From an uncultured Acidobacteriota bacterium (GTDB taxonomy: Bacteria > Acidobacteriota > Thermoanaerobaculia > Multivoradales > SZUA-115): a stretch of 64,000 nt of DNA. Where the stretch lies: contig CAWDVR010000004.1 in assembly GCA_963805975.1 (NCBI GenBank), positions 480,001-544,000 on the forward strand. The letters run 5' to 3'. This document shows, in pieces, positions 28,915-46,235 of this stretch. A program made the position numbers and the translations under genes. Position 1 is the first letter of the stretch. Every line of letters starts with the position of its first letter. Below the pieces are notes generated by a model. That model was not told the origin of the DNA. It was given only the letters and a program-made list of their open reading frames with translations, and ran no database searches.

Positions 28915-29004
28915 TCCATTCAACTACTCGAAAACATTCAAATTGTAAATCGCTAGACTGCATGTCAGCGGATTTCTTGACTCTCTTCTTCGTTGTCTAC
29001 ATTC

Positions 29005-29036
29005 CTGACGCTTGGCTGACGCCGGGTCTGCATGAT
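29005..29036 (+). promoter_or_regulatory. SARP/OmpR-type promoter: CTGACGC-N4-CTGACGC-N8-CATGAT
   Basis: Two identical heptamers with 11-bp periodicity, ending 8 nt before a -10-like hexamer, in the AT-richer region upstream of the giant gene. Confidence 0.55.
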
Positions 29037-29130
29037 GCGACCCAACATCGCTGTCAGAGCACCTGATCGCGAGTCGCTCTCGACCCACGCAATGGGCTTC
29101 GGTACTGGCTTCGCACTGAGGAGGGTTTCG

Positions 29131-32100
29131 ATGAAAGTTCGTGGAATCTTGTTTGGTCTGCTCGCGCTGGCTTTCCTCACCGCCACCCTGCCGGCTGCCG
29201 CACAGCTCGGTCCGGGTCCCTTCGCCGCCTTCCCGACCTCGGACGAGACGGACGGCCGCTTCCTGGGGTTCGGTTGCCCGGGTCTCCAGACCTTCGAGTC
29301 GGGGGTCTCGATCACGCTGGCGGCACAGCCCTCCGAGACCGACTTCACCCTGAGCATCTTCGACGGCGACTCGAGCGGTTCGGATCCGTTCGGTCACTGG
29401 GACATCGGCGACCGCCAGCTCCTCTACAGCCTGTACTTCGACCCGTTCCGCCAGGGGAACACCAACCCCGCGGACCTGGTGGGCCAGTGGACCGGCAACG
29501 CTCCCAACCCGCCCACCAACCCGGTCCCGGACCCGAACAAGCAGTGGACGACCTCGGCCGCCACCATGCCCGACAACGACTGGTGGGGCGTGACCATCCA
29601 GACCTCGGCCCCTGCACAGGCGATGCCGGGCGCGAACTTCTTCTACCACCTGCGGATCGACGCGGACGGGACCTGCGCCCCGCTGGAGCTCCTGGAAGCG
29701 AACATCAAGGTGGCGGCCTCGGCGCCCCTCAACTTCGCGGCGCCCCGGTTCGCCTTCGTGGCGGCGCTTCGGCAGCTCGAGGACATCGGGGTGATCTATC
29801 CCGGCGCTCCGTTCCCGGACCTGCCGGGCGGCCGTGGCTACATCGACGAGCCCACGACCAACGACGGCACGTTCCAGTTCGCGCTCAACATCCCGCCGGG
29901 GGCCACGACGCTGAACCTGTATGACGGCGACTTCGATCACGGCACCGACCCGGTGGACAATTTCGGGATTCCCTCCGGCGTGCCTCTGAATCCTTGCATG
30001 GACCTGGACGATCCGGACACGCCGGCGGACTACGGCAACTTCCCTTCCGGTGTAGGGACGGCGGGGGCAGACCCCGAGGGCGCGGTGCCCTTCGGCCAGC
30101 CGGCCGACGACGTTTCCTTCGACATCTTCCGCCGCGGCGAGCCGGCCTCTGCGGACCGCCTCGGCTGCGTGCGTTACGAGATCACGGATCCCGACGGCAA
30201 CGTCTACGCGAACAACAACCCGTCGAGCAACGTCGAATGGGAGCAGTTCCGCATCGTCAGCCTGAACGATCCCGACGCGGGCGACCCCAGTCTGTACGAC
30301 CACCTGGCGCCGACCCCGTTCCTGACTCCCGGGACCTGGGACGTGCGCGTGGTCGGCCTCGACATGTCGAACCTGAACTTCTGGTTCGCCGAGTTTGGCG
30401 TCTGCTCGAGCCTCGAGAACCCGCAGTTCTTCATGCCGCTCGACTTCGAGAAGAACGGTTTCGGCAACACGGTCGCCTCGGGGGTGGTGGTGGCGGAGCA
30501 GTGGGCCAACCTGGGCATCCACTTCAGCACCAATGACCCGGTCAACCATCCGATCAAGACCTTCGACTCGGCGTTCCCCTTCGCCCTCGAGCTGGACCTC
30601 GGCACTCCCAACGTCGACTTCTTCGGTCTGGGGGTCGGCGCCGGTGGCGGCGCCGGCCAGCCGGGTGAGAACCGGGTGCCGCAGCGCAACATCCTGGTGA
30701 TCGCCGACAGCCCGGAGGCCGACGGCAACTACGACGGCGGCGGCGTGATCATCGTGACCTTCGACTCGCCGCGCCAGCTCTCCGCCGTGGAGCTGCTGGA
30801 CATCGAGGAAGCGGGCGGCACGGTGCAGGCGTTCGACTCGCCCGTGGGCGGCTCGCTGCTGGCCTCGGCGGCGATCCCCACCCGCGGCGACAACGGCTTC
30901 GTCTCCGTCCCCCTGGTCTCTCCAGGCGTGCGCCGCCTGGAGATCACCTTGGTGGGCGAGGGCGGCGTGGTCGCCATCCGGTCGGGCCAGGCGTTCACCC
31001 CGTCCTGCCCGCCGCCGGTCTTTGCGCTGGGCGACACGGTGTTCTACGACGACAACGGCAACGGCACGCAGAACCCCGGTGACGACGGCATCGCCGGCGT
31101 GGTGATGGAGCTCCTGGCCAACGGCAACCCGACCCCGATCGCGTCCGCGATCACCGGTGACACGGCCAATCCCAACTTCAGCAAGTGCCGGAGCCTGAAC
31201 ACCGGCCTCGACGAGCAGGGCCTGTACTGCTTCCTGGTGCCGTCTGGCGATTACACGGTGCGGGTGGCGGCCTCGAACTTCGCTTCCGGCCAGCCGCTCT
31301 TCGGCCTGGGCTCCACCACCGGCGGCGAGACCCAGACCAACACCGTCAGCAACGCCAACGTCATGACCTACGACTTCGGCTACCGCGGCACCGGCTCGAT
31401 CGGCGACCGGGTGTGGCGCGACAATGACGGCGACGGCGTGCAGGACGGCGGCGGCGAGACGGGCATCAACGGTGTGACCGTGCGTCTGCTCGACGCGGAC
31501 GACAACGTGATCGACACGCAGGTGACCGCCGGCGACGGCGGTTACCTGTTCAGCAACCTGGGCCCGGGCGACTACACGGTGGAGGTGATCCCGGCGAGCT
31601 TGCCGGCGGGCCTCGATCAGACCTACGACCTGGATGGCGTCGGCACCCCCAACAGCGCGGCGGTGAGCCTGGCGGCGGGCCAGAACCGCACAGACGTGGA
31701 CTTCGGCTACCGCGGCACGGCCTCGATCGGCGACCGGGTGTGGCTGGACCTGGACGGCGACGGCGTGCAGGACGGCGGCGGTGAGACCGGCATCAACGGT
31801 GTGACCGTTCGCCTGCGGGATGCGGGCAACAACGTGATCGGTACGCAGGTGACGTCCGGCGACGGCAACTACCTGTTCACCAACCTGGCCGCCGGCACCT
31901 ACACGGTGGAGGTGGACTCGACGACCCTGCCGGCGGGCTTGGCGCAGACCTACGACCTGGACGGTCTCGGCACTCCGCACCGCGCCACGGCGAGCCTGGC
32001 GGCGGGCCAGAACCGCATCGACGTCGACTTCGGCTACAAGCCGGCGACGCCGGTCTGCACCGCCGGCTACATGAAGGACACGTTCACGACGGCGAGCTTC

Positions 32101-34236
32101 TCGAACAACGAAGGCACCCTGGCGTGGAGCGCCGCGTGGATCGAGAACGACGTCGCCGGCGCCGGTCCGGGCAGCGGCAATGTGACGGTGGGAACTCCGG
32201 TATCCGGGTACCTGATCCTGCGCGACAGCCCGGACACCGGCACGCAGCCGAGCGCGGCGCGCGAGGCCAATCTCTCCGGCTTCGCCTCGGCGATGCTGTC
32301 CTTCGATTTCCACATCCGTGGGGTCGAGACCGACGACGCGGCGGTGGTGGAGGTTTCGAACAATGGAGGCGCTTCCTACACCGTTCTCGAGACCTTCACC
32401 GGCCTGACCGGGACGACCATCAGCTCGCGCAGCTACGACATCACGGCATACAAGGCGAGCAATACGCGGATCCGGTTCCGGATCAGCAACCTGTACGGCG
32501 GCGATGACGATTTCTTCAAGCTCGACCTGGTCCGTATCGACGCCACCTGCGTGCCGCCGCAGACCGGTTCGGTCGGTGACCGGGTTTGGAAGGACAGTGA
32601 CGGCGATGGCATCCAGGACGGCGGCGAGCCGGGGATCAACGGCGTCACCGTCCAGTTGCTGAATTCGGGAGGCACGGTCGTCGCGACGCAGGTGACCAGC
32701 GGCAACGGAAACTATCTGTTCAGCGGCCTCAACGCCGGGACCTATTCGGTGCGTGTCGTTTCGAGCACCGTGCCGGCTGGCTACTCGCAGACCTACGACC
32801 TCGACGGCACGGGCAGCGCCCACATCGCCAGCTTCTCGCTGGGCGCGGGACAGAATCGCACCGACGTCGACTTCGGCTATCGCCCGGCGCCAGTCTGCAC
32901 CGCCGGCTACCTGAAGGACACGTTCACGACGGCGGGCTTCTCGAACAACGAGGGCACGCTGAATTTCAACGGCTCGTGGATCGAATACGACGTGGCGGGA
33001 GCGGGTGCGAGTAGCGGCAACGTGACGGTGGGAACTCCGGTCGCCGGGTACATGATCCTGCGCGACAGCCCGGACACCGGGACGCAGCCGAGTGTGGCGC
33101 GCGAGGCCAATCTCTCCGGCTTCGCCTCGGCGACGTTGTCCTTCGACTTCCACATCCGTGGAGTCGAGGCCGACGACGCGGCGGTGGTGGAAGTTTCGAA
33201 CAACGGGGGAGCTTCCTACACCGTGCTCGAGACCTTCACCGGCTACACCGGCACCACGATCAGCTCGCGGAGCTACGACATCACGGCGTACAAGGCGACC
33301 AATACGCGAATCCGGTTCCGGATCAGCAACCTGTACGGCGGCGATGACGACTTCTTCAAGCTCGATGTGGTGCGCATCGACGCCGCTTGCGTGCCTCAGA
33401 CTGGATCGGTCGGCGACCGGGTGTGGAAGGACAGCGACGGCGACGGCGTCCAGGACAGCGGCGAGACGGGCCTCAACGGGGTTACCGTCGAGCTGCTGAA
33501 CTCGGGCGGCACGGTGATCGCCACCCAAGTGACGAGCGGCAACGGCAACTACCTGTTCAGCGGCCTCGCCGCCGGCACCTACAAGGTACGGGTCAAGTCG
33601 ACCACGGTGCCGTCGGGCTACACCCAGACCTACGACCTGGACGGCACCGGCACGGCGCACCTCGCGACGTTCACGCTGGCGGCGGGACAGAACCGCACCG
33701 ACGTGGACTTCGGCTACAAGCCAGCGCCGGCGTGCACGGCGGGTTACTTCAAGGACAACTTCGGCACCGCCAGCTTCTCGAACAACGACGGCACGCTGAG
33801 CTGGTCGGCGGCGTGGGTCGAGTCCGACAGCGCCGGCGCGGGAGTGAGCAGCGGCAACGTCACGGTGGGGACGCCGTACAGCGGCTATCTGATCCTGGAC
33901 GACAATCCGGACACTGGCACGCAGCCGAGCGCGGCGCGCCAAGCGAACCTCTCCGGCTTCGTCACCGCGACGCTCAAGTTCGACTTCCACACCACCGGCG
34001 GTACCGACGCGGACGACGCCGCGGTCATCGAGGTGTCGAACAATGGCGGCGCGTCCTACACCGTGCTGCAGACCATTACCGGACTGACGGGCACGAACGT
34101 CGGCTCGAAGACCTTCAACATCTCGGCCTACATCTCGAGCAACACGCGGATCCGGTTCCGGATCAGCGCCAACTATGGGGCCGCGGACGAGATGTTCAAG
34201 GTGGACACGGTGCGGATCGACACCACTTGTCCGTGA
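29131..34236 (+). CDS. Giant secreted/surface protein (1701 aa) with five SdrD B-like domains and three Cys-bracketed ~165-aa repeats
   Basis: SD GAGGAGG, signal peptide MKVRGILFGLLALAFL..AAA; GD(R/T)V(W/F).D.(D/N)G(D/N)G.Q...DFGY repeats; C-TAGY...ID..C domain three times. Confidence 0.88.
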   Translation: MKVRGILFGLLALAFLTATLPAAAQLGPGPFAAFPTSDETDGRFLGFGCPGLQTFESGVSITLAAQPSETDFTLSIFDGDSSGSDPFGHWDIGDRQLLYSLYFDPFRQGNTNPADLVGQWTGNAPNPPTNPVPDPNKQWTTSAATMPDNDWWGVTIQTSAPAQAMPGANFFYHLRIDADGTCAPLELLEANIKVAASAPLNFAAPRFAFVAALRQLEDIGVIYPGAPFPDLPGGRGYIDEPTTNDGTFQFALNIPPGATTLNLYDGDFDHGTDPVDNFGIPSGVPLNPCMDLDDPDTPADYGNFPSGVGTAGADPEGAVPFGQPADDVSFDIFRRGEPASADRLGCVRYEITDPDGNVYANNNPSSNVEWEQFRIVSLNDPDAGDPSLYDHLAPTPFLTPGTWDVRVVGLDMSNLNFWFAEFGVCSSLENPQFFMPLDFEKNGFGNTVASGVVVAEQWANLGIHFSTNDPVNHPIKTFDSAFPFALELDLGTPNVDFFGLGVGAGGGAGQPGENRVPQRNILVIADSPEADGNYDGGGVIIVTFDSPRQLSAVELLDIEEAGGTVQAFDSPVGGSLLASAAIPTRGDNGFVSVPLVSPGVRRLEITLVGEGGVVAIRSGQAFTPSCPPPVFALGDTVFYDDNGNGTQNPGDDGIAGVVMELLANGNPTPIASAITGDTANPNFSKCRSLNTGLDEQGLYCFLVPSGDYTVRVAASNFASGQPLFGLGSTTGGETQTNTVSNANVMTYDFGYRGTGSIGDRVWRDNDGDGVQDGGGETGINGVTVRLLDADDNVIDTQVTAGDGGYLFSNLGPGDYTVEVIPASLPAGLDQTYDLDGVGTPNSAAVSLAAGQNRTDVDFGYRGTASIGDRVWLDLDGDGVQDGGGETGINGVTVRLRDAGNNVIGTQVTSGDGNYLFTNLAAGTYTVEVDSTTLPAGLAQTYDLDGLGTPHRATASLAAGQNRIDVDFGYKPATPVCTAGYMKDTFTTASFSNNEGTLAWSAAWIENDVAGAGPGSGNVTVGTPVSGYLILRDSPDTGTQPSAAREANLSGFASAMLSFDFHIRGVETDDAAVVEVSNNGGASYTVLETFTGLTGTTISSRSYDITAYKASNTRIRFRISNLYGGDDDFFKLDLVRIDATCVPPQTGSVGDRVWKDSDGDGIQDGGEPGINGVTVQLLNSGGTVVATQVTSGNGNYLFSGLNAGTYSVRVVSSTVPAGYSQTYDLDGTGSAHIASFSLGAGQNRTDVDFGYRPAPVCTAGYLKDTFTTAGFSNNEGTLNFNGSWIEYDVAGAGASSGNVTVGTPVAGYMILRDSPDTGTQPSVAREANLSGFASATLSFDFHIRGVEADDAAVVEVSNNGGASYTVLETFTGYTGTTISSRSYDITAYKATNTRIRFRISNLYGGDDDFFKLDVVRIDAACVPQTGSVGDRVWKDSDGDGVQDSGETGLNGVTVELLNSGGTVIATQVTSGNGNYLFSGLAAGTYKVRVKSTTVPSGYTQTYDLDGTGTAHLATFTLAAGQNRTDVDFGYKPAPACTAGYFKDNFGTASFSNNDGTLSWSAAWVESDSAGAGVSSGNVTVGTPYSGYLILDDNPDTGTQPSAARQANLSGFVTATLKFDFHTTGGTDADDAAVIEVSNNGGASYTVLQTITGLTGTNVGSKTFNISAYISSNTRIRFRISANYGAADEMFKVDTVRIDTTCP
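32056..34233 (+). repeat. Intragenic tandem repeats of ~840 bp (Cys-bracketed domain plus SdrD B domain)
   Basis: Units start at TGC 32056, 32896 and 33733; units 1 and 2 are nearly identical at protein level. Confidence 0.9.
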
Positions 34237-34248
34237 TTGGGTGTCTGT

Positions 34249-34545
34249 ATGTCCAGCGTGAAGGAGCCGACGATCTTGGGACAGTTGACCATCCCGCCCT
34301 CTGTTCTCTTCCGAGACCTGGGCGGGGAGGCCGTGCTGCTGGAGCTCGAGACCGGCTGCTACTTCGGGCTCGACGAGATCGGGACCCGCATCTGGCGGCT
34401 GATCGAGAAGCACGGTGAGCTGCCGCGCGTGGAGCGCGAGCTGCTGGAGGCCTACGAGGTGTCGCCGGACCATCTGGCCGGCGACCTCTCCGCCTTCGTC
34501 CGCTCGCTGGTCTCGCGCGGCCTGCTGAGGGCCCATGAAGCGTAG
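34249..34545 (+). CDS. PqqD-family RiPP recognition element (lasso B1/E protein)
   Basis: GGEAVLLELETGCYFGLDEIGTRIW..I...LL.AYEV....LAGDL..FV.SL.SRGLL. Confidence 0.92.
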   Translation: MSSVKEPTILGQLTIPPSVLFRDLGGEAVLLELETGCYFGLDEIGTRIWRLIEKHGELPRVERELLEAYEVSPDHLAGDLSAFVRSLVSRGLLRAHEA

Positions 34546-34963
34546 AGCCCGCGCCTTCTTCTCGCTGGCGAGCGAAGAGCGAGACGTCCTCCTCGAAGCC
34601 TGGTGCCTCCTGCTGCTGGCGGATCTCGCCCTGCGCTGGCTGCCCTGGAGGCGGGTCGAGGGGCTGCTTGCACCCGCGCAGGGCTCCAGTCGTCTGACGC
34701 TGCTCTCGCCGGCACGGCTCGCCACGCTGGTCGAGATCGCGGCCCGGCACCATCTGGTTCCCATGACCTGCCTGCGGCGCGCGCTGGTGCTGCGCCGGCT
34801 GCTCTCGCGGACGGGCTCGAGCGGGGCCCTGAGACTCGGCGTCCGCCGCGAAGCGAACGAGCTCCTGGCCCATGCCTGGGTGGAAGTGGGCGAGCGGCCG
34901 CTGGGGGATGATCCTCAGGTAGCCCTCCGCTTTGCCCCCCTCCTGCCCGCTCACAGCGCGTGA
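34535..34963 (+). CDS. Lasso peptide B2 leader peptidase (transglutaminase-like Cys protease)
   Basis: TCLRRALVL...LRLGVRR...LAHAWVEVG (Cys-His-acid triad). Confidence 0.92.
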   Translation: MKRRARAFFSLASEERDVLLEAWCLLLLADLALRWLPWRRVEGLLAPAQGSSRLTLLSPARLATLVEIAARHHLVPMTCLRRALVLRRLLSRTGSSGALRLGVRREANELLAHAWVEVGERPLGDDPQVALRFAPLLPAHSA

Positions 34964-35042
34964 GACGAGTGCTAACAGTCGCCGGAGCGCTGGATCGAGC
35001 CTGCGACGCGCTCAGCTCGTTTTAGGAAGCAGTATTTTGTAA

Positions 35043-35077
35043 TGGTATGATACCGGCGGTCTGCGAGCCGGCGGTAT
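35043..35077 (+). promoter_or_regulatory. Extended -10 promoter (TGgTATGAT) with an overlapping inverted repeat, upstream of the precursor gene
   Basis: TG-n-TATGAT at 35043-35051; ATACCGGCGG-N8-CCGGCGGTAT at 35050-35077. Confidence 0.55.
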
Positions 35078-35152
35078 CCGTTCAGGCTGGCTACGAGTCG
35101 CTCTGTAGAGACTAGAGAGATGAAGCTCCAGCGGCCCGACCTGAGAGACACC

Positions 35153-35341
35153 ATGAGAGAACACGAGAAAGCGAATCAGGAAGGCGGTGGCACGCGGTCT
35201 TCCGTGCCCGCGGGCGAGCGGCCGCCGCGGCGCGCCTACAGCCCGCCCCAGCTCGTGGTCTATGGCACTCTTTCCGACCTGACCCAGGCCTTGGGCGTCC
35301 TTGGCCGCGACGGGTTGGCCGGCTCTCGTCCCCGTACCTGA
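35153..35341 (+). CDS. Lasso peptide precursor (A); predicted core ALGVLGRDGLAGSRPRT (35288-35338)
   Basis: Leader RRAYSPPQLVVYG (YxxPxL) with Thr at -2 (LTQ|A); Asp8 as ring acceptor; alternative start at 35120. Confidence 0.88.
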   Translation: MREHEKANQEGGGTRSSVPAGERPPRRAYSPPQLVVYGTLSDLTQALGVLGRDGLAGSRPRT

Positions 35342-35367
35342 ACCCCGTCCTGTCGCCACGAGCCCCG

Positions 35368-37149
35368 TTGCCAGGGTCCCTGCCACGGCAGCCTCCGCTG
35401 GCGGAGGGCGCCACGGCGGGCGGCTCCCACCCGCTGTCGCACGCGTGGCTGATCACCTGGGATCCGCACCATAATCGAGTCCGGGTAGGCTCCTCCGAGC
35501 CGTCGAGCCCCACTGCCGCGGATGCCACCTGCCTGTGGTGCGCAGGCTGGGTGGCGAATCGACCGGCGTTGAGCGCGAGGACCGGCCTCCCCCTCACGGC
35601 GACCGCTCGCGAGCTGGTGCCGGCGCTCTACGCCCGCGAGGGGCCCGAGGCGGCGCGGCAGATCGCCGGTGACCTGGCCTGGGTGCTGTGGGACCCTCGG
35701 CAGCGGCTTCTCTTCGCCTGCCGCGACCGGCTCGGAAGCCATCGCCTCCTCTACCGGGTGGTGGCCGACCAGATCCTGCTCTCTGGAAGCGTCGGGCCAC
35801 TCCTCTCCGACCCTCTCGTCCCTGGTCCGGGCTCGACGATCAATCTCTCGGCGCTCGTGGCGCACGTGCAGGGTGACGCGCTGCCGCCCGGGGAGACTTT
35901 CTTCAGCTCGATCCAGGCCGTCGAGCCGGCGACCTGCGTGACCTTCGGCGGCACGGCCGAGATCCGCCGGCGCTACTTCTGCCTGGCTGCCCAACCGCTG
36001 CTCGAGCTGCACAGCGACGCCGAGTATGCGGAGGCCTTCCGCGACCGGCTGCGGGAAGTGGTCGCGGACCATGCCGAGCCGGGACCCCTGGGCCTCACGC
36101 TGTCGAGCGGGCTCGACTCGACCTCGATCGCCGTCGCGCTCTCCGAGCTCGGCCGGGCCTCCGACGTGACCGCCATCACCTGGGTGACCCCGGGGCTGCC
36201 GGCGGCGGACGAGAGCGCGGGCGCCCGGGCGGTGGTGAGCCGTACCGGCCTCGGGCACCTGGAGATCCCGGCCGATCGACACTGGCCGCTGGCGACCGGC
36301 ATGGAGCTGGAGCCCCCCGCGGAGGGGCCGCCGCTGACGCTGTTCGGCGGGCTCTGGGACGTCACCTACGCGCTGGCTCGCGAGCGGCGGATCTCTTCCC
36401 TGTGGACTGGCCTGGGGGGGGACCATCTCTTCGGCGGGAACGTCTTCTCTTACCCGGATCTCCTGCTCACCGGCCGTTGGCTCGCGCTCGCGAGGCAGCT
36501 CCGGGACCATCTGCCGCGCTCGGAGTTCCGGCCCGCGGAGGTGCTGCGGTCGATGATCGTTTCCCCGATCCTCCGCTCCTACATGCCTCTGCCGCGCTTC
36601 CGCCGGGTCCCGACCGTGCCCTGGCTCACGGCCAAGGGGCTGGCCCTCTACCGCCCGCAGCGGCCCACCGCTCCGCGGCGGCTCCTGCCCGGCCGGCGCC
36701 AGCGGTTCGAGGCCCTCACCGAAGCGGCCCTGCCGCGGCTGGTGGAGGACCAGGCGGCCGCGGCGGCGCGCCATGGCGTGACTCTGCGGCATCCCCTGCT
36801 CGATCCGCGCCTGCTCGAGCTCGCGGCGAGCCTGCCCACCGACCAGAGCTTCCGCGCGGCTCGCCGCAAGGGGATCATGGTGCGCGCCATGCGCGGCCGG
36901 CTGCCCGACGAAATCCTCGACCGGCACGATAAGATTTATCCCACCGCGCTCGCCGAGCGCGGCCTCAAGGAGCGGGAGACGAAGAAGGTCTGGAGCCTGA
37001 TGGACAATCCGCGGCTCGGCGATCTGGGCCTGATCGAACCCGCCTCCTGGCGGCAGGCCTATCGGCTCTACCTCGATGGCCGCGAGGACTCCGACATGTT
37101 CTGGCACACCCTCACCGCGGAAGCCTGGCTGCGGCTGCACGGCGGCTGA
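35368..37149 (+). CDS. Lasso cyclase (asparagine synthetase B-like, C protein)
   Basis: RDRLG, LSSGLDSTSI PP-loop, TGLGGDHLFGG, HPLLDPRLLE; no N-terminal MCG glutaminase Cys; start uncertain. Confidence 0.88.
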   Translation: MPGSLPRQPPLAEGATAGGSHPLSHAWLITWDPHHNRVRVGSSEPSSPTAADATCLWCAGWVANRPALSARTGLPLTATARELVPALYAREGPEAARQIAGDLAWVLWDPRQRLLFACRDRLGSHRLLYRVVADQILLSGSVGPLLSDPLVPGPGSTINLSALVAHVQGDALPPGETFFSSIQAVEPATCVTFGGTAEIRRRYFCLAAQPLLELHSDAEYAEAFRDRLREVVADHAEPGPLGLTLSSGLDSTSIAVALSELGRASDVTAITWVTPGLPAADESAGARAVVSRTGLGHLEIPADRHWPLATGMELEPPAEGPPLTLFGGLWDVTYALARERRISSLWTGLGGDHLFGGNVFSYPDLLLTGRWLALARQLRDHLPRSEFRPAEVLRSMIVSPILRSYMPLPRFRRVPTVPWLTAKGLALYRPQRPTAPRRLLPGRRQRFEALTEAALPRLVEDQAAAAARHGVTLRHPLLDPRLLELAASLPTDQSFRAARRKGIMVRAMRGRLPDEILDRHDKIYPTALAERGLKERETKKVWSLMDNPRLGDLGLIEPASWRQAYRLYLDGREDSDMFWHTLTAEAWLRLHGG

Positions 37150-37151
37150 GG

Positions 37152-38360
37152 ATGAGCACACTGACGCGCGCCACTCTCCTCGCCAGGAAGCCTGACCTGG
37201 AGCTCCGCCTCGATGCCAGGAACCAGGTCGCGGTGATGGTCGGCGGCGAGGCCGTGCCCTGCGGCCCCTACGGACTGGCCGTTCTGGAGGCGTTCTCGCG
37301 GCCTGCCACTCTCGACGAGGCATTGCGCCGGGTGCAGGCCCGTGGCGCCCAGGACTGGATGGACCTCACCAGCGTCGTCGTGCGTCTCTACGAGGCCGGG
37401 GTGCTCCTCGACGGCGAGCGCGGCAAGCCGGCGCCAGAGAGGCGCTCCGGCTTTGCGAGCTGGTCGGTCCACGTCAAGATGCTCAACGACCGGGTGCGCA
37501 CGGCCAGCTACCTGAGGGCGATCGCGGAAACGGTGCGACCGGGCGACGTGGTGGTCGACATCGGCACGGGCACCGGGGTGCTGGCGGTGGCCGCGGCCCG
37601 TGCCGGGGCGCGGCAGGTGTTTGCCGTCGAGGCTTCCGGCATTGCCACGGTGGCCCGCGAGGTCTTCGCGAGGAGCGGCGTGGGCGATCGGATCACGCTG
37701 GTCGAAAGCTGGTCCACGCAAGCCGAGCTTCCGGAGCCGGCGGACGTGATCGTGAGCGAGATCATTGGCAACGATCCTTTCGGGGAACGGGTCCTGGAGG
37801 TGCTCGCTGATGCCCGGAGGCGGTTGGCCCGGCCCGGCGCGCGCTCGGTTCCCCGCCGCTTGCGGGTCTACGTCCTGCCGGTGACGGTCCCGGAAGAAGA
37901 GCTGGTGCGCCGCATGGGGAGCGAGGCGACCCTCGCCCGCTGGCGCTCCTGGTACGACCTCGACCTCTCCCCGCTCGCTCTGCTGGCAGAGCAGTCGGAA
38001 GAGCCGCTTTTCTTTATCCGCCCGCAGAAGGCGAGCCTCTGGCCGGCGCTCGCCGAGCCGGCGCTGGTGGCGAACGTGGACCTCGAAGCCGAGCCGCCCG
38101 GCGTGCTGGACACGACCGCGGAGGTCACGGTCACGGCTCCCGGCCTCCTGAGCGGCCTGCTGATGTACTTCGAGCTCGATCTCAGCCCCACGGTCACGTT
38201 CTCCACTCATCCCGCCCGGGTCGAGGAGGCCGGCTGCTGGCGGAGCCCCGTGTGGGTCCCTGCCCGGCGGCGGCGCTACGAGCCCGGCGAGCGTCTCTCC
38301 CTCCGCTTCGAGTATGGGCATGCCTCCCGCTGGACGCGGTTGACCCTTCTTCCCGCGTAG
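37152..38360 (+). CDS. PRMT-like (protein arginine N-methyltransferase fold) SAM methyltransferase with an N-terminal RRE/wHTH-like domain
   Basis: HVKMLNDRVRT..Y..AI, VVDIGTGTGVL, VFAVEAS, DVIVSEIIGNDPFGE (E-x8-E loop), C-terminal GLLMYFEL..FSTHP..CW. Confidence 0.8.
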   Translation: MSTLTRATLLARKPDLELRLDARNQVAVMVGGEAVPCGPYGLAVLEAFSRPATLDEALRRVQARGAQDWMDLTSVVVRLYEAGVLLDGERGKPAPERRSGFASWSVHVKMLNDRVRTASYLRAIAETVRPGDVVVDIGTGTGVLAVAAARAGARQVFAVEASGIATVAREVFARSGVGDRITLVESWSTQAELPEPADVIVSEIIGNDPFGERVLEVLADARRRLARPGARSVPRRLRVYVLPVTVPEEELVRRMGSEATLARWRSWYDLDLSPLALLAEQSEEPLFFIRPQKASLWPALAEPALVANVDLEAEPPGVLDTTAEVTVTAPGLLSGLLMYFELDLSPTVTFSTHPARVEEAGCWRSPVWVPARRRRYEPGERLSLRFEYGHASRWTRLTLLPA

Positions 38361-38369
38361 GGCCCCAGC

Positions 38370-39401
38370 TTGCAGCCTCCGAGCGCAACCGCCGGCCTCG
38401 GGCACGAGACCTACCGGGTCTTCGGGCAGACCCTCGCCACGAGCTTTCCGCTCGCGAACGTGCTCGCCTCCGGCCACGGCCCGGTCGATTTGGTCTTCTC
38501 CTGCACGGACCAACCCCCGAGCGAGGTGGACGACGCGGCGTTCGAGCCCTTCTATCAAAGCCCCGAGCGTACGGGCTCGGGAGAAGCGGTCTGCAGTCTG
38601 GCTCGCTTTCCCGGGGCTCGCCTCGTCGAGTGGGAGAGGCTGGGCTTCCCGCAGGTGGCCGACTTCTACTATCTCGGCCCGGCCCGGATTCACGCCCGAA
38701 GGCTCGCCGGCGGGAACGATGCCGAGATCGAGCAGTGCCTGCTCGGGCCGGTCCTCTCCTACTGGCTCGAGCAGAGGGGAATCCTCGCGTTACACGCCTC
38801 AGCGGTGGAGGTGGGGGGCGAGGCGATTGCCTTCCTCGCCGCCGGCGGCACCGGGAAGACGTCGCTGGCCGCGGCCTTCCTCGCAGAGGGGGACGCCCTG
38901 GTCACGGACGACGTGCTGGCCCTCCAGCCCGCTGCACGAGGATTTCTGGCGCTTCCCGGCTACCCGCAGCTCAAGCTCTGGCCGGATCTCGCCCGGCAGC
39001 TCTTCGGTGAGCGTTCGGCCCTGCCGCGCGTGCTTCCGGGGGTCGAGAAGCTGCGCGCCCCGGTGGGGGCCGGCTTCGGGCGGTTCTGTCACCAAACGCT
39101 GCCGCTGACCGCGCTCTACCTGCTCGAACGGCGACCCGAGGACGCGGGCCGCGACGGCCGCGTGGTTCCGGTCGCCTCACGAGACGCCCTGATCGAGCTC
39201 GTCCGGCACTCGTTCTCGCCCCGCCTGGCGGAGGCGACCCAACTCCAGGAGCGCCGCCTCACGCAGTTCGCCCGCCTGCTGCGGGAGGTTCCAGTCCGGC
39301 GTCTGCTGGTGCCCTCGGCTCTCGAGCTCCTGCCGCGGGTGGCCGAGGCGGTGCGGCGGGACCTCAGCCTGCCGCGAGGGAACCCTTCTCCTCGAGAATG
39401 A
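38370..39401 (+). CDS. HPr kinase-like P-loop kinase (lasso-peptide kinase type)
   Basis: LHASAV, AAGGTGKTSL (Walker A), LVTDD. Confidence 0.85.
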   Translation: MQPPSATAGLGHETYRVFGQTLATSFPLANVLASGHGPVDLVFSCTDQPPSEVDDAAFEPFYQSPERTGSGEAVCSLARFPGARLVEWERLGFPQVADFYYLGPARIHARRLAGGNDAEIEQCLLGPVLSYWLEQRGILALHASAVEVGGEAIAFLAAGGTGKTSLAAAFLAEGDALVTDDVLALQPAARGFLALPGYPQLKLWPDLARQLFGERSALPRVLPGVEKLRAPVGAGFGRFCHQTLPLTALYLLERRPEDAGRDGRVVPVASRDALIELVRHSFSPRLAEATQLQERRLTQFARLLREVPVRRLLVPSALELLPRVAEAVRRDLSLPRGNPSPRE

Positions 39402-41703
39402 GACGGCGCCTCTCCCCCCGCTCCTCCGCGCCTGCCGCCTCTCCCTGGCGGTCGAGCTCGTCGAGCGCCGCCAGGGCCTGGTTGTAGTAGTGCCGGGCGG
39501 TGGCGGCGGCGAGCGGCCGCGCCTTCGCCGCCGCCATCCGCGAATACTCGAAAGCGCGGCCCCACATCCGGGCCTGCCCGAAGTGATAGGCCAAGAGCTC
39601 GCAGGCCTCGGCCCGATCCGCCGGCAGCCGGGCCTCGATCGCCTCGGCGATCCGCCGGTGGAGGATCTGGGCCCGTTCGGGGGAGAGGCTGGCGGCGATC
39701 GCCCTGCGGATGGAGGGGTGGGCGAACTCGAAAGTGCCGTGCCGTGCTCCCTGGACCCAGAGCGCCACGTCGCGCTGGCGGCGGCTGTCCGCCCAGTAGC
39801 GCAGGAAATGCCGCACCAGCCAGCGCTGCAGCATCATCTCGACACAGGTCTCGACCACGCCGCCGTCCTCCTGCTCGGCAGCTTCCAGGAGCTCGGCTTC
39901 GAACCGCTGGCCGATCAGGGAGGCCAGGGTGAGCAGGCGCCGGGTGGAGGAGGGCAGCCGGCGGATACGCCGCAGGACCAGATCCTCGTGGCGCGCGGGC
40001 AGGTGCGACCCGAGCTGCCCCCCGAATTGCTTGGGCACGGCCGTCAGGCGCCAGCTCTTGCCCTCCGGCACCAGGGCTCCCTCGTCCCACAGCAGGTTGA
40101 TCCATTCGGTAAGGAGCAGCGGGGCGCCTTCGGTGGCAGCGAACAGGAACCGCGCCAGGGTGGCGCTGCCCTGCTTGCCGACCAGCGAGACGGCGATGCG
40201 GGCCACGCTCTCGGCCGAGAGGCGGTCGAGCGACAGGCGCCTGACGCGGCCTCGCGGCGCGCCGGCCGCGGCGAGGAGCTTCGCCAGGCCGCTCGACGCG
40301 GTCTCTTGCGGCCGGTAGGTCGCCACCACCCAGACCGGCAGGTCGGCGATCTCGGGGAGCAGCGCATGGAGCAGGTTGAAAGTGTCGTCGTCCATCCACT
40401 GCAGGTTGTCGAGAAAGAGGATCAGCGGGCGGGGTTTGCTCGCCGCGCCGGCGCCCGCTGTGACGTGATGGAAGAAGGCGCCGAGGGCGATGGCCAGGCG
40501 GCCGACCGGCAGCGGTGGCGGGTCGCCCGGCCTGGGGGCCAGCTCGGGCCGGAGCTCGCCGAGCTCCGGCACCAGCCGCGCAACGTCCGCCAGCGCGTCG
40601 CCCAACGGCAGACGGGTGATGCGCTCGGCGATCTCGACCTCGCTGGCGAGCGAGTTGCGGAGCGCCTCGATCAGCGGCTGGAAGGCGACCGGCGGCGCGA
40701 GATCGTAGCTGCGGCCGAGAAACACCGTCGCCCGCTCCCGGCTGGTGATCTCGTCGAGGACGGCGCGCACGAGGCGCGACTTGCCGATCCCCGCCTCGCC
40801 CTCCACCAGCGTCAGGCACCCCTGGCCGTCGCTCGCCGCGCGCCAGGTGTGGTGGAGGTGCTGGGACGCTTCCTCTCTTCCCACCAGCGGGATGAGGGGC
40901 CCGCGGGGAGCCGCCTTGTGCTCGCCACCGGCGAGCGCCGGCAGGCTCTCGTCGAGGATCTGCCGGTGGAGCTGGCGGGTCTCCTCCATCGGCTCGACGC
41001 CCAGCTCCCTGCCGAGCAGGCGCTCGAAGCTCTCGTAGTCCTCGAGCGCCCGGCTGCGGCGGCCGGTGTAGGCATAGAGCAGCATGAGCTGGCGGTGCAC
41101 CTCCTCCGACAGCGGGTCGATGCGCAGCAACTGCCGCGCGTACTGGATGCCGAACACGTGGCCGCCGGAACGCAGATGGTGCGCCACCAGGGCACGCAGG
41201 GCGGCGACGGCGGACTCGCGCAGGCGTTCCTGCTCGGCGAGCATCCATTCCTCGAACGGTGGGCTGTCGGAGAGAAAGAAGCCGGCCAGGAAGTCGCCGC
41301 GGTAGAGCTGCGCCGCCCGCGCCAGCTCCCGCGGGTCGGCGACGTCGCCGTCGCCCCAGCCGCGGTCGATCGCCTCCGAGAAGGCATGGAGATCGACCCA
41401 GCAGTGCTCGCCCGGTGCGAAGCGGATGCTGCCCTGCTCGGCGGAGATCAGTGGCGGGGCGCCCTCCGGCACCTGCAGCACCGCGCGCAGGTTGTAGAGG
41501 GCCTGGCGCAGGTTCTGGCGGGCCGCCGTTTCGCCGTGGTGAGGCCAGAACAGGCCCGCCAACTGGTCGCGGCTGAAGGCCCGCCCGGGGTGGGCGGCGA
41601 GGTAGGCGATGAGCGCGCGGGCGCGCTGCGACTCGAAGCGGACCACCCGGCGCGAACCGGAGATCTCGAGTTCCCCCAGCAGGCGGATGTCGAGGCGGGT
41701 CAT
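39364..41703 (-). CDS. SARP/BTAD transcriptional regulator with AAA ATPase and TPR-like domains
   Basis: LDIRLLG, RALIAYL..SRDQLAGLFWP..NLRQAL (wHTH); YRGDFL..W...E, DPLSEE.HRQLM (BTAD); LVGRE, EGEAGIGKSRL, LDNLQWMD; FAHP. Confidence 0.9.
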   Translation of the reverse strand: MTRLDIRLLGELEISGSRRVVRFESQRARALIAYLAAHPGRAFSRDQLAGLFWPHHGETAARQNLRQALYNLRAVLQVPEGAPPLISAEQGSIRFAPGEHCWVDLHAFSEAIDRGWGDGDVADPRELARAAQLYRGDFLAGFFLSDSPPFEEWMLAEQERLRESAVAALRALVAHHLRSGGHVFGIQYARQLLRIDPLSEEVHRQLMLLYAYTGRRSRALEDYESFERLLGRELGVEPMEETRQLHRQILDESLPALAGGEHKAAPRGPLIPLVGREEASQHLHHTWRAASDGQGCLTLVEGEAGIGKSRLVRAVLDEITSRERATVFLGRSYDLAPPVAFQPLIEALRNSLASEVEIAERITRLPLGDALADVARLVPELGELRPELAPRPGDPPPLPVGRLAIALGAFFHHVTAGAGAASKPRPLILFLDNLQWMDDDTFNLLHALLPEIADLPVWVVATYRPQETASSGLAKLLAAAGAPRGRVRRLSLDRLSAESVARIAVSLVGKQGSATLARFLFAATEGAPLLLTEWINLLWDEGALVPEGKSWRLTAVPKQFGGQLGSHLPARHEDLVLRRIRRLPSSTRRLLTLASLIGQRFEAELLEAAEQEDGGVVETCVEMMLQRWLVRHFLRYWADSRRQRDVALWVQGARHGTFEFAHPSIRRAIAASLSPERAQILHRRIAEAIEARLPADRAEACELLAYHFGQARMWGRAFEYSRMAAAKARPLAAATARHYYNQALAALDELDRQGEAAGAEERGERRRLILEEKGSLAAG

Positions 41704-41791
41704 CGAAAAGTCGTCGGGTCGCGAGAGATTCACAGTGTAGCGCGGAACGCTGTAGCAGCGTCGCTCCGGTCCTTCGGCACTGGCAGGGCCC

Positions 41792-41820
41792 TTGACAGGC
41801 CGCCGCCGTAGTCCTATCCT
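41792..41820 (+). promoter_or_regulatory. Sigma70 promoter of groESL
   Basis: TTGACA (41792-41797), 17 nt spacer, TATCCT (41815-41820). Confidence 0.85.
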
Positions 41821-41821
41821 G

Positions 41822-41848
41822 TTAGCACTCACCGACGCCGAGTGCTAA
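41822..41848 (+). promoter_or_regulatory. CIRCE element (HrcA operator)
   Basis: Perfect TTAGCACTC-N9-GAGTGCTAA. Confidence 0.97.
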
Positions 41849-41938
41849 CAATCGGCCGTCGGTTCCCAATAAGTCACGTCGTTCCCGAAGGTTAATACGT
41901 ACACCGTGTGGATTTAGACGACTAAAGGAGGAGTTTCT

Positions 41939-42229
41939 GTGAACATCCGTCCCCTGAACGACCGTGTCGTGGTCAAGCGCATCGAGGCCCAGGAAGAGGT
42001 CCGTGGCGGCATCATCATCCCGGACACCGCTAAGGAGAAGCCGCAGGAGGCCGAGGTCATCGCGGTCGGCCCCGGCAAGCTCAACGACGACGGCAAGCGG
42101 GTGCCGATCGACGTCAAGGCCGGCGACCGCGTCCTGATCGGCAAGTACTCGGGCAGCGAGATCAAGGTCGGCGAGAACGACTACGTGATCCTGCGCGAGG
42201 ACGAGATCCTGGCCGTCGTCGAGAAGTAG
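41939..42229 (+). CDS. groES: Co-chaperonin GroES
   Basis: [29 protein letters not shown]; SD AAGGAGG. Confidence 0.98.
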
Positions 42230-45764: not shown

Positions 45765-46106
45765 TCACGGGTAGTTCGGGCACTGCATCACGCACTCCCG
45801 GTAGCGGTCGTGACAGGCGTCGATGCACTCGTCGTCGAAGGGCGGGCACTGGTGCTGGATACAGCACTTGCGCTCGTTGAAGCAGCTCGCGCAGGGGTTG
45901 GGCGAGCAGAAGTAGGGTGGCGGGAGTGTTTTGGCCTCGGCAGCCGGCGCGAGTAGCGCGAGCAGCACCGGGTCGGCGGCTGGGATCGGCTGGGATTCCG
46001 CCAACGGGACTGGTTCTCCGGAAGAGGGCGCCGCCGGCGCGATGTCGGCAGACGCAGTGAGAACCACGAAAAGGGCGGGGACGAGGGCGAGCAAGGCTTT
46101 TTTCAT
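45765..46106 (-). CDS. Small secreted cysteine-rich protein (signal peptide, Pro/Ala-rich pro-like region, 10-Cys domain)
   Basis: MKKALLALVPALFVVLTASA; C-x4-C-x2-C-x5-CC-x4-C-x6-C-x3-C-x6-C-x3-C; SD AAGGAAG. Confidence 0.75.
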   Translation of the reverse strand: MKKALLALVPALFVVLTASADIAPAAPSSGEPVPLAESQPIPAADPVLLALLAPAAEAKTLPPPYFCSPNPCASCFNERKCCIQHQCPPFDDECIDACHDRYRECVMQCPNYP

Positions 46107-46235
46107 CAGGACACTTCCTTTGTCCAAGGGGGTGCCGGCGGAGGGCCTCGGGGAGACCGCCCTCGGCCGCGGTCTGCTCGAGGTGGTGAGCTGCTACGGA
46201 AGGGTCTTGCCCTGCTGTGCGTGAGAAGGGAGGGC

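Follow-up and report, generated by a model that had tools for sequence, protein, structure and literature searches.

The window considered here, i.e., the whole stretch of 64,000 nucleotides analyzed from the genome of an uncultured acidobacterium (contig CAWDVR010000004.1, positions 480,001 to 544,000), harbors a locus that, as judged from its RRE, leader peptidase (B2) and precursor, is a lasso-type cluster, to which are joined a giant secreted protein, an HPrK-like kinase, an AfsR-like regulator and a methyltransferase with the predicted fold of the protein arginine methyltransferases (PRMTs). The source is a soil bacterium with a 5.36 Mb genome in 6 contigs (96% complete), in the whole of which the B2 of the locus is the sole lasso B2 above the NCBIfam cut-off. 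The list of open reading frames and the family scans place the giant protein, RRE, B2, precursor, AsnB-like cyclase, methyltransferase and kinase in a same-strand run, followed by the convergent BTAD/AAA regulator, with a GT4 gene flanking the locus on one side and a CIRCE element and groES on the other. The place, order and strand given for these genes in a first-pass annotation are all confirmed. The genes are:

29131..34236, + strand: giant secreted protein of 1701 aa with a signal peptide, a conserved N-terminal beta-sandwich region of ~400 aa, 5 SdrD-B and 3 reelin-like repeats (family scans, model)
34249..34545, + strand: RRE (B1, PqqD family; PF05402 58.8 bits, cut-off 23.4)
34535..34963, + strand: leader peptidase B2 with C79/H113/D125 kept (NF033537 64.1, cut-off 33)
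35153..35341, + strand: precursor of 62 aa with its core, ALGVLGRDGLAGSRPRT, at 35288-35338 and a predicted Ala1-Asp8 ring (NF033521 23.7, cut-off 19)
35368..37149, + strand: AsnB-like lasso cyclase with a short N-terminus, an SSGLDS loop and no N-terminal Cys (PF00733)
37152..38360, + strand: PRMT-fold methyltransferase with an RRE-like N-terminal domain, H107/M110/D113/R116, the double-E loop (E203/E212) and GCW for THW (PDB hits, model, alignments)
38370..39401, + strand: HPrK-like peptide kinase with H142, K163, D180 and D181 (family scans, alignment)
39364..41703, - strand: AfsR-like regulator with a winged helix-turn-helix (wHTH), BTAD and AAA_16, Walker A intact, and a short C-terminal region (family scans, PDB matches)

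The RRE gene starts 12 nt after the end of the giant gene and overlaps B2, a 189-nt gap separates B2 from the precursor, and the methyltransferase gene starts 2 nt past the cyclase stop, within the operon. For the giant gene, a start at 29032 is disfavored relative to 29131, which has both a ribosome-binding site and the signal peptide and is most likely the true start; for the precursor, 35153 is most likely, as a related strain has lost the upstream ATG at 35120. Contigs from a related strain in a further soil run span the junctions from the giant gene through RRE, B2 and precursor to the cyclase, and from the cyclase through methyltransferase and kinase to the regulator; as they bridge these junctions, the gene order can be ruled out as an assembly artefact.

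The precursor displays the leader motif YSPPQL, Thr-2 and Asp8, and its 17-residue core is cationic (3 Arg, 1 free carboxylate), ends in Thr and lacks His. The mass of ~1676.94 Da earlier calculated by hand for the cyclized core is reproduced on recomputation (1676.943). The RRE scores below clade-specific NCBIfam cut-offs, though that of PF05402 is exceeded. Across the locus family Thr-2, B2 and an Asp/Glu at position 8-9 are conserved, while the cores differ strongly between genomes and most orthologous ones are acidic. Taken at the level of sequence, the locus probably makes a lasso product.

The PRMT-fold methyltransferase and the arginines of the core

The best 60 PDB sequence matches listed for the methyltransferase are all PRMTs (E 2e-23). 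Its AlphaFold model (pLDDT 88.9) has the predicted Rossmann and beta-barrel architecture of the PRMTs, with PRMT7 as the top Foldseek match and PRMT7, PRMT3 and PRMT6 as the best ones, and a structure comparison returns Z of 21.9-29.1 for 15 PRMT chains vs at most 13.9 for other methyltransferases. The HxxM-D-R helix is intact, and the double-E loop (SEIIGNDPFGE) aligns with SEWMGYGLLHE of PRMT6: by the tool's lists, E203 is invariant in 24/24 sequences of one alignment and E212 near-invariant, and both are invariant in a second alignment of 15 close orthologues, as is Trp363 of the THW loop, which in other members reads T/S/N-H-W. The enzyme is hence predicted to retain the PRMT fold along with both arginine-binding glutamates. 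Its residues 1-90 align with an RRE profile over 83 columns (hhalign probability 70.7, E 3.8e-5, controls <1%), and the N-terminal part of the model consists of strands followed by three helices. With the eukaryotic PRMTs, e.g., PRMT6, CARM1, PRMT7 and PRMT3 (motifs as given in passages of PMC13689401), it thus shares the fold, the HxxM-D-R helix, the double-E loop and the Trp of THW, and it differs from them in being bacterial, in its RRE-like N-terminus, in the Cys for His in THW and in its place in an operon for a peptide made by the ribosome and modified after translation (a RiPP), its activity being a prediction.

The target of this enzyme can be approached through the peptides encoded beside it and its relatives. 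Cores were located by a leader hidden Markov model and by eye; a core that occurred in duplicate was dropped, as were four loci whose cores measure 3-4 residues, one precursor was scored for each of two multi-precursor loci, and L164 gave no precursor. On this basis, Arg is found in the core at 18 of the 19 loci with a double-E enzyme vs 6/24 without it (Fisher 5.8e-6; the counted genomes are related, and p-values of this kind overstate the difference). No other residue of the 20 differs between the two sets at p < 0.1, and their mean core lengths are 22 and 20. For Acidobacteriota alone the counts are 7/7 with the enzyme and 5/21 without it, and 3 of 13 cores found later without the methyltransferase have Arg. 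His occurs in only 2/19 cores paired with the double-E enzyme. Seven further loci with the long-form methyltransferase (L198-L204) have no lasso precursor to score.

Because of the PRMT fold, the glutamates, the RRE-like N-terminus and the co-variation with Arg, methylation of Arg is likely: Arg is most likely the residue that the methyltransferase targets, and its predicted action on this particular precursor is given a somewhat better than even chance. The candidate sites are Arg7 (in GRDG) and Arg14/Arg16 (in RPR, of the RxR kind). The preferred motif is RXR for PRMT7 and GAR for type I enzymes (passages of PMC13689401), and as the core offers both RPR and GRDG the target cannot be chosen between them. 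The lasso tailoring enzymes LasF/StspM (C-terminal ester) and the PIMT-like TceM/LihM (aspartimide) likewise depend on S-adenosylmethionine, but they carry out O-methylation and have other folds (passages of PMC9266682), whereas N-methylation of Arg is predicted here. A literature search, with most subscription papers and supplements outside its range, turned up neither an Arg-methylated lasso peptide nor a description of the locus, and the supplements of genome-mining studies, which also lay outside it, may list such clusters; a 2026 review (PMC13352647) names no Arg-methylated lasso peptide among the modifications in the passages concerned.

Several observations weigh against this view of the enzyme. 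The THW loop reads GCW, with Cys in place of His. Neither Pfam nor NCBIfam calls an RRE in the methyltransferase, pairwise BLAST between it and the local RRE is blank, and the authors of RRE-Finder discounted 1,050 methyltransferase hits, taking them for false positives (passages of bioRxiv 2020.03.14.992123). One locus, L031, combines the double-E enzyme with three Arg-free cores. The single characterized PRMT-like RiPP enzyme found, TsaG of the thioamitide clusters, which is a PF06325 methyltransferase with a predicted PRMT-like structure, bis-methylates His (passages of bioRxiv 10.1101/2020.12.17.423248); it is likened to the present enzyme, whose substrate core has no His, by description rather than by sequence. 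Finally, only 17/34 close methyltransferase loci include a cyclase or B2 (13/23 among those with a length of 10 kb or above), which makes the enzyme in many cases an orphan without lasso genes nearby.

These orphans, the Arg-free cores of L031, the moderate strength of the RRE call and the bacterial SznE, to which arginine methylation in a small-molecule pathway is ascribed (passages of PMC12637814), can be marshaled for an alternative in which the lasso peptide is phosphorylated only and the PRMT-fold enzyme is a mobile passenger with another substrate, which may be a protein of the cell, free Arg or a peptide whose gene lies elsewhere. That the gene follows the cyclase stop by 2 nt, that of the 20 residues Arg alone shows enrichment, which extends over several phyla, and that sister clades of the enzyme too sit in RiPP clusters argue against it, and the alternative appears unlikely, at about one chance in four.

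The family of the methyltransferase is large and spans phyla: of the candidates that were scored, at least 527 reach E <= 1e-40. Within the acidobacterial order the enzyme is rare (E < 1e-100 in 6/251 genomes), and it is absent at E <= 1e-30 from 7/7 other genomes of the host's family. The methyltransferase that the first-pass annotation had counted as part of the cluster is thus present but is a rare add-on rather than a core part of the locus. A quick tree, from which the clades are drawn, separates its clade from a short kinase-adjacent clade without the glutamates and from a lanthipeptide-adjacent clade. The same annotation knew of no cluster with this combination of genes, which nevertheless is not unique; three relatives (G100, G130, G049) share the full layout, but their PRMT-fold methyltransferase is of the short clade and lacks the double-E loop.

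Members of this short clade always follow a kinase (L066, L214, L215, L019, L020, L021, L062, L065), and the cores beside them often have K-T or M-T near the end. The sister clade, with HE-x-x-G-x-DPFEE and an N-terminal extension (L013, L014, L015, L204, L209, L210), adjoins Cys-rich lanthipeptide-like precursors, most of them with Arg. Further homologues lie in larger tailoring islands (L028, L032, L035), with genes that by eye resemble oxygenases, sulfotransferases and membrane proteins.

The kinase site, the operator and the absence of an exporter

The residues H142, K163, D180 and D181 are invariant in 13 aligned kinases. Paeninodin-type kinases, invoked in the first pass, act on a C-terminal Ser (passages of PMC9266682); the likeness holds for the His-Lys-Asp-Asp set and fails for the substrate. 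Of 12 cores, one from the window and the others from 11 loci whose kinases are nearest to its own (E < 1e-40), which are kin and not independent, none ends in Ser and four, the window's included, end in Thr; the C-terminal Ser is ruled out as the site. In 11 of the 12, G-[ST] lies 4 or 5 residues from the C-terminus (G-[ST]-x3-4-COOH), a pattern reached by 0/20000 shuffles. Since G-[ST] is so frequent and a C-terminal Ser is lacking throughout, internal Ser13 is the likely site, and we would lean, if only slightly, toward its phosphorylation by this kinase, with Thr17 as the alternative. The double modification proposed earlier is plausible, with the methyl target now refined to Arg and the kinase site to Ser13.

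A precedent for an internal Ser is furnished by the bsf cluster of Bradymonas sediminis, whose HPrK-like kinase BsfK, helped by an RRE, phosphorylates Ser3 (passages of PMC10368454); there, however, the Ser is a ring residue, in contrast to the conserved hydroxyl of the present family, which belongs to the tail (-4/-5), and the bsf cluster has an ABC transporter and a nucleotidyltransferase, neither of which is in the cluster of the window. With the paeninodin/pseudomycoidin-type clusters (PadeK, ThcoK, SyanK, PsmK; passages of PMC9266682), the locus shares the split B1/B2, the AsnB-like cyclase and the kinase with its His-Lys-Asp-Asp; it departs from them in lacking the C-terminal Ser, a nucleotidyltransferase and an ABC exporter, and in adding the giant protein, the regulator and the PRMT-fold enzyme.

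The regulator matches AfsR and EmbR (PDB 8hvr, 2fez). With these large Streptomyces antibiotic regulatory proteins it has in common the wHTH-BTAD and ATPase and an 11-bp phased direct repeat before the target; it differs in a very short C-terminal sensor region, in being acidobacterial and in having a secreted-protein/lasso operon for its likely target. The repeat and the other non-coding features of the locus are:

29005..29021, + strand: direct repeat CTGACG-N5-CTGACG, phased with a period of 11 bp and likely to serve the BTAD/AAA regulator as operator (genome and relatives scan)
34967..34977, + strand: half CIRCE (GAGTGCTAACA), probable rearrangement scar (genome hits, relatives' layout, related-strain decay)
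35043..35051, + strand: TGgTATGAT ahead of the precursor, which resembles an extended -10 element and may be an internal promoter (read from the sequence)
41822..41848, no strand: full CIRCE before groES, right boundary of the locus (genome CIRCE search)

The repeat occurs once at that spacing in the 5.36 Mb genome, other spacings giving 0-2 matches each. Among 59 scanned loci it has 19 matches in 13, in 12 of which it stands directly before the giant gene, and it adjoins a regulator orthologue in 16/17 regulator-centered loci, which were chosen mainly from genomes where B2 was not close. This recurrence suggests that the repeat is likely the regulator's operator. As points on the other side, it precedes no giant gene in 5/17 regulator loci, and the lasso genes are split from the regulator in G002 and G006; therefore, co-regulation is not obligatory. 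The core module thus appears to be regulator, operator and secreted protein, with the lasso cassette as a frequent but not obligatory partner. In relatives the regulator is usually divergent from the giant gene; here it stands at the far end. No terminator beyond chance-level matches is seen between the giant gene and the precursor, and a sigma-70 scan of the locus found the groES promoter alone, not picking up the -10-like element, for which no change is listed in a related strain.

The half CIRCE sequence matches the genome at only 3 places, and two of these belong to the CIRCE of groES. It trails B2 at the very point where, in several relatives, B2 directly abuts CIRCE-groES, and it is decayed in a related strain. 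We infer from this that a block rearrangement placed the precursor, cyclase, methyltransferase and kinase, together with the regulator, between B2 and groES. One contig of sample X3/X4 departs from the window's sequence immediately after B2, a weak hint that the block from precursor to kinase is exchangeable. This block appears to behave as a swappable cassette within an older regulator/secreted-protein locus. The start of the regulator and the groES promoter with its CIRCE are arranged back to back (window 41703-41939), and HrcA could influence the regulator in this strain. Beyond the boundary, a small secreted protein (window 45765-46127, - strand) has a Cys-rich C-terminus and no Pfam or NCBIfam match.

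Across the order, lasso B2 is above the cut-off in 125/251 genomes and a regulator orthologue (E <= 1e-90) is found in 86/251. Both are listed in 73 genomes: within 30 kb of each other in 26, far apart on one contig in 4 and on different contigs in 43, most of the last being fragmented assemblies. In 40 B2-centered stretches, chosen for long contigs across families, and their extensions, the layout of regulator, giant gene, RRE, cyclase, precursor and kinase recurs in many loci, often beside groES or after ribBA-GT4; the locus is widespread in the order and syntenic rather than patchy. At a distance of up to 8 kb from the cyclase, 0/22 giant-linked loci have an ABC exporter vs 16/36 other lasso loci, a count in which a part of the stretches stop close to the cyclase and related genomes are included. 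The recurring layout, the proximity of regulator and B2, the operator and this exporter contrast rule out a chance neighborhood, and the giant protein, kinase, regulator and lack of an exporter prove to be conserved features of the locus.

Its statement that the cluster has neither an ABC exporter nor an isopeptidase also stands: the sole ABC signature of the 64 kb window is an Mn/Zn importer, and no isopeptidase gene lies within the cluster. Reviews connect a D gene with antibacterial activity and describe an isopeptidase in the majority of proteobacterial clusters that lack an exporter (passages of PMC7549694); the present family has no exporter and the cluster of the window no isopeptidase. 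Since a dedicated exporter and an isopeptidase are both lacking, a self-toxic antibiotic is most likely not what the locus makes, and a non-antibiotic role is moderately probable. An ordinary antimicrobial lasso, with a general ABC transporter elsewhere for its export and a giant protein that is merely co-regulated, could draw on the 7 ABC_membrane genes elsewhere in the genome, which count against a retained peptide, on the cationic core and on the strong variation of cores between genomes; set against the exporter contrast, the syntenic and widespread locus and the mostly acidic orthologous cores, it seems quite improbable.

The cyclase, the giant protein and a proposed pathway

The earlier identification of a lasso cluster is upheld by the RRE, B2 and the YxxPxL/Thr-2 precursor and is less secure at the cyclase, which matches PF00733 but reaches only 146 vs the cut-off of 525 for the lasso-cyclase family NF033535. 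Its ATP-loop and acidic/Asp motifs are kept in what is a divergent clade, and its short N-terminus, common to G009, G116 and G037, rules out a pseudogene. The low score, the shortened N-terminus and a second AsnB-like gene adjoining its closest relative, in G116, leave room for a non-threaded product, i.e., a C-terminal amide or branched macrocycle made by a divergent AsnB-like enzyme, many RiPP enzymes of this kind not being lasso cyclases (passages of PMC13622209). Yet B2, Thr-2 and the Asp/Glu at position 8-9 are conserved across the family, the enzyme has no Cys at its N-terminus and groups within the cyclases of the family, and the short form is the sole cyclase in the fetched stretches of G009 and G037, so that such a product is given a low probability of around one in ten.

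In G116 (L225:3769-7496) the two AsnB-like genes flank one precursor. Four loci (L067:10522-10635, L068:10400-10498, L080:12288-12542, L082:7587-7715) encode lasso-like leaders with merely 3-4 residues before the stop, beside an RRE, B2, an AsnB-like gene and an ABC transporter; such precursors cannot form a lasso and may belong to another product class.

The giant protein is predicted to be secreted, and no surface anchor is seen in it: it has no hydrophobic segment besides the signal peptide and no C-terminal anchor, and SdrC/SdrD models score far below cut-off on it. Its N-terminal region, modeled with pLDDT 83.8, gives a best E of 7.8e-4 with a TM of about 0.2 in Foldseek and, in VIA, a best Z of 8.6 (rmsd 3.4, 119 aligned) to the jelly-roll of CspB, matches that amount to the common beta-sandwich alone; the Atlas clusters are unnamed, and named homologues are labeled Thermoanaerobaculia or Acidobacteriota, from which the host probably belongs to that class. 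Across loci, the giant partner is either an SdrD-B repeat protein with the window's N-terminal region or a peptidase-C25 protein. In the same genome, a second giant secreted protein of 1580 aa with a peptidase C25 domain (contig C2, about 600.9-608.7 kb; L022:2880-10656) adjoins a short precursor-like ORF and radical SAM/SPASM, PqqD and HPrK-like genes, i.e., the same theme with other chemistry. The surface display earlier proposed for the peptide, on or bound by the giant protein, might appeal to the persistent co-location, the shared operon layout and this second RiPP cassette, but with no anchor and no sign of contact with the peptide, a partner that switches type while the cassette stays, no export route for the peptide and an N-terminal region that is a common beta-sandwich alone, it can be set aside as the least probable of the readings.

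The reading preferred here, held tentatively and at slightly less than an even chance, is that of a 17-residue lasso peptide whose precursor would be phosphorylated at Ser13 and methylated at Arg, and whose operon would be switched on along with the giant protein by the AfsR-like regulator. The regulator would bind the CTGACG repeat and activate the giant gene, RRE and B2, with the genes from precursor to kinase expressed by read-through or from an internal promoter. The RRE and the RRE-like domain of the methyltransferase would bind the YxxPxL leader, and the kinase and methyltransferase would modify the linear precursor, the latter at Arg7 or at Arg14/Arg16. B2 would then cut after Thr-Gln and the cyclase close the ring, yielding a modulator that might be retained in the cell or passively released and be tied to the secreted-protein program. 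In Streptomyces, lasso peptides are reported to influence development (PMC11371967); direct signaling of the present peptide to the regulator is a possibility to which we would give a chance of roughly one in four. More speculative still, at about one in five, is a scenario in which a large bacterial family of leader-guided, RRE-fused, true protein-arginine methyltransferases marks RiPPs with methyl-Arg in the manner of histones, and phospho- and methyl-coded lasso signals retained in the cell drive an AfsR-like switch for giant proteins throughout the order.

To the gene list of the locus, the present analysis adds the co-variation with Arg, a Ser/Thr motif inside the core, the contrast in exporters and the probable scar of a rearrangement. 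If true, leader guidance of a bacterial PRMT would be a tailoring chemistry of a new kind, would provide a programmable means of making methyl-Arg peptides and would bear on the origins of the PRMTs. As to what lasso peptides without an exporter do in nature, the locus offers a conserved regulator, a defined putative operator and a secreted protein that is likely co-regulated, and so makes a non-antibiotic role for such peptides directly testable.

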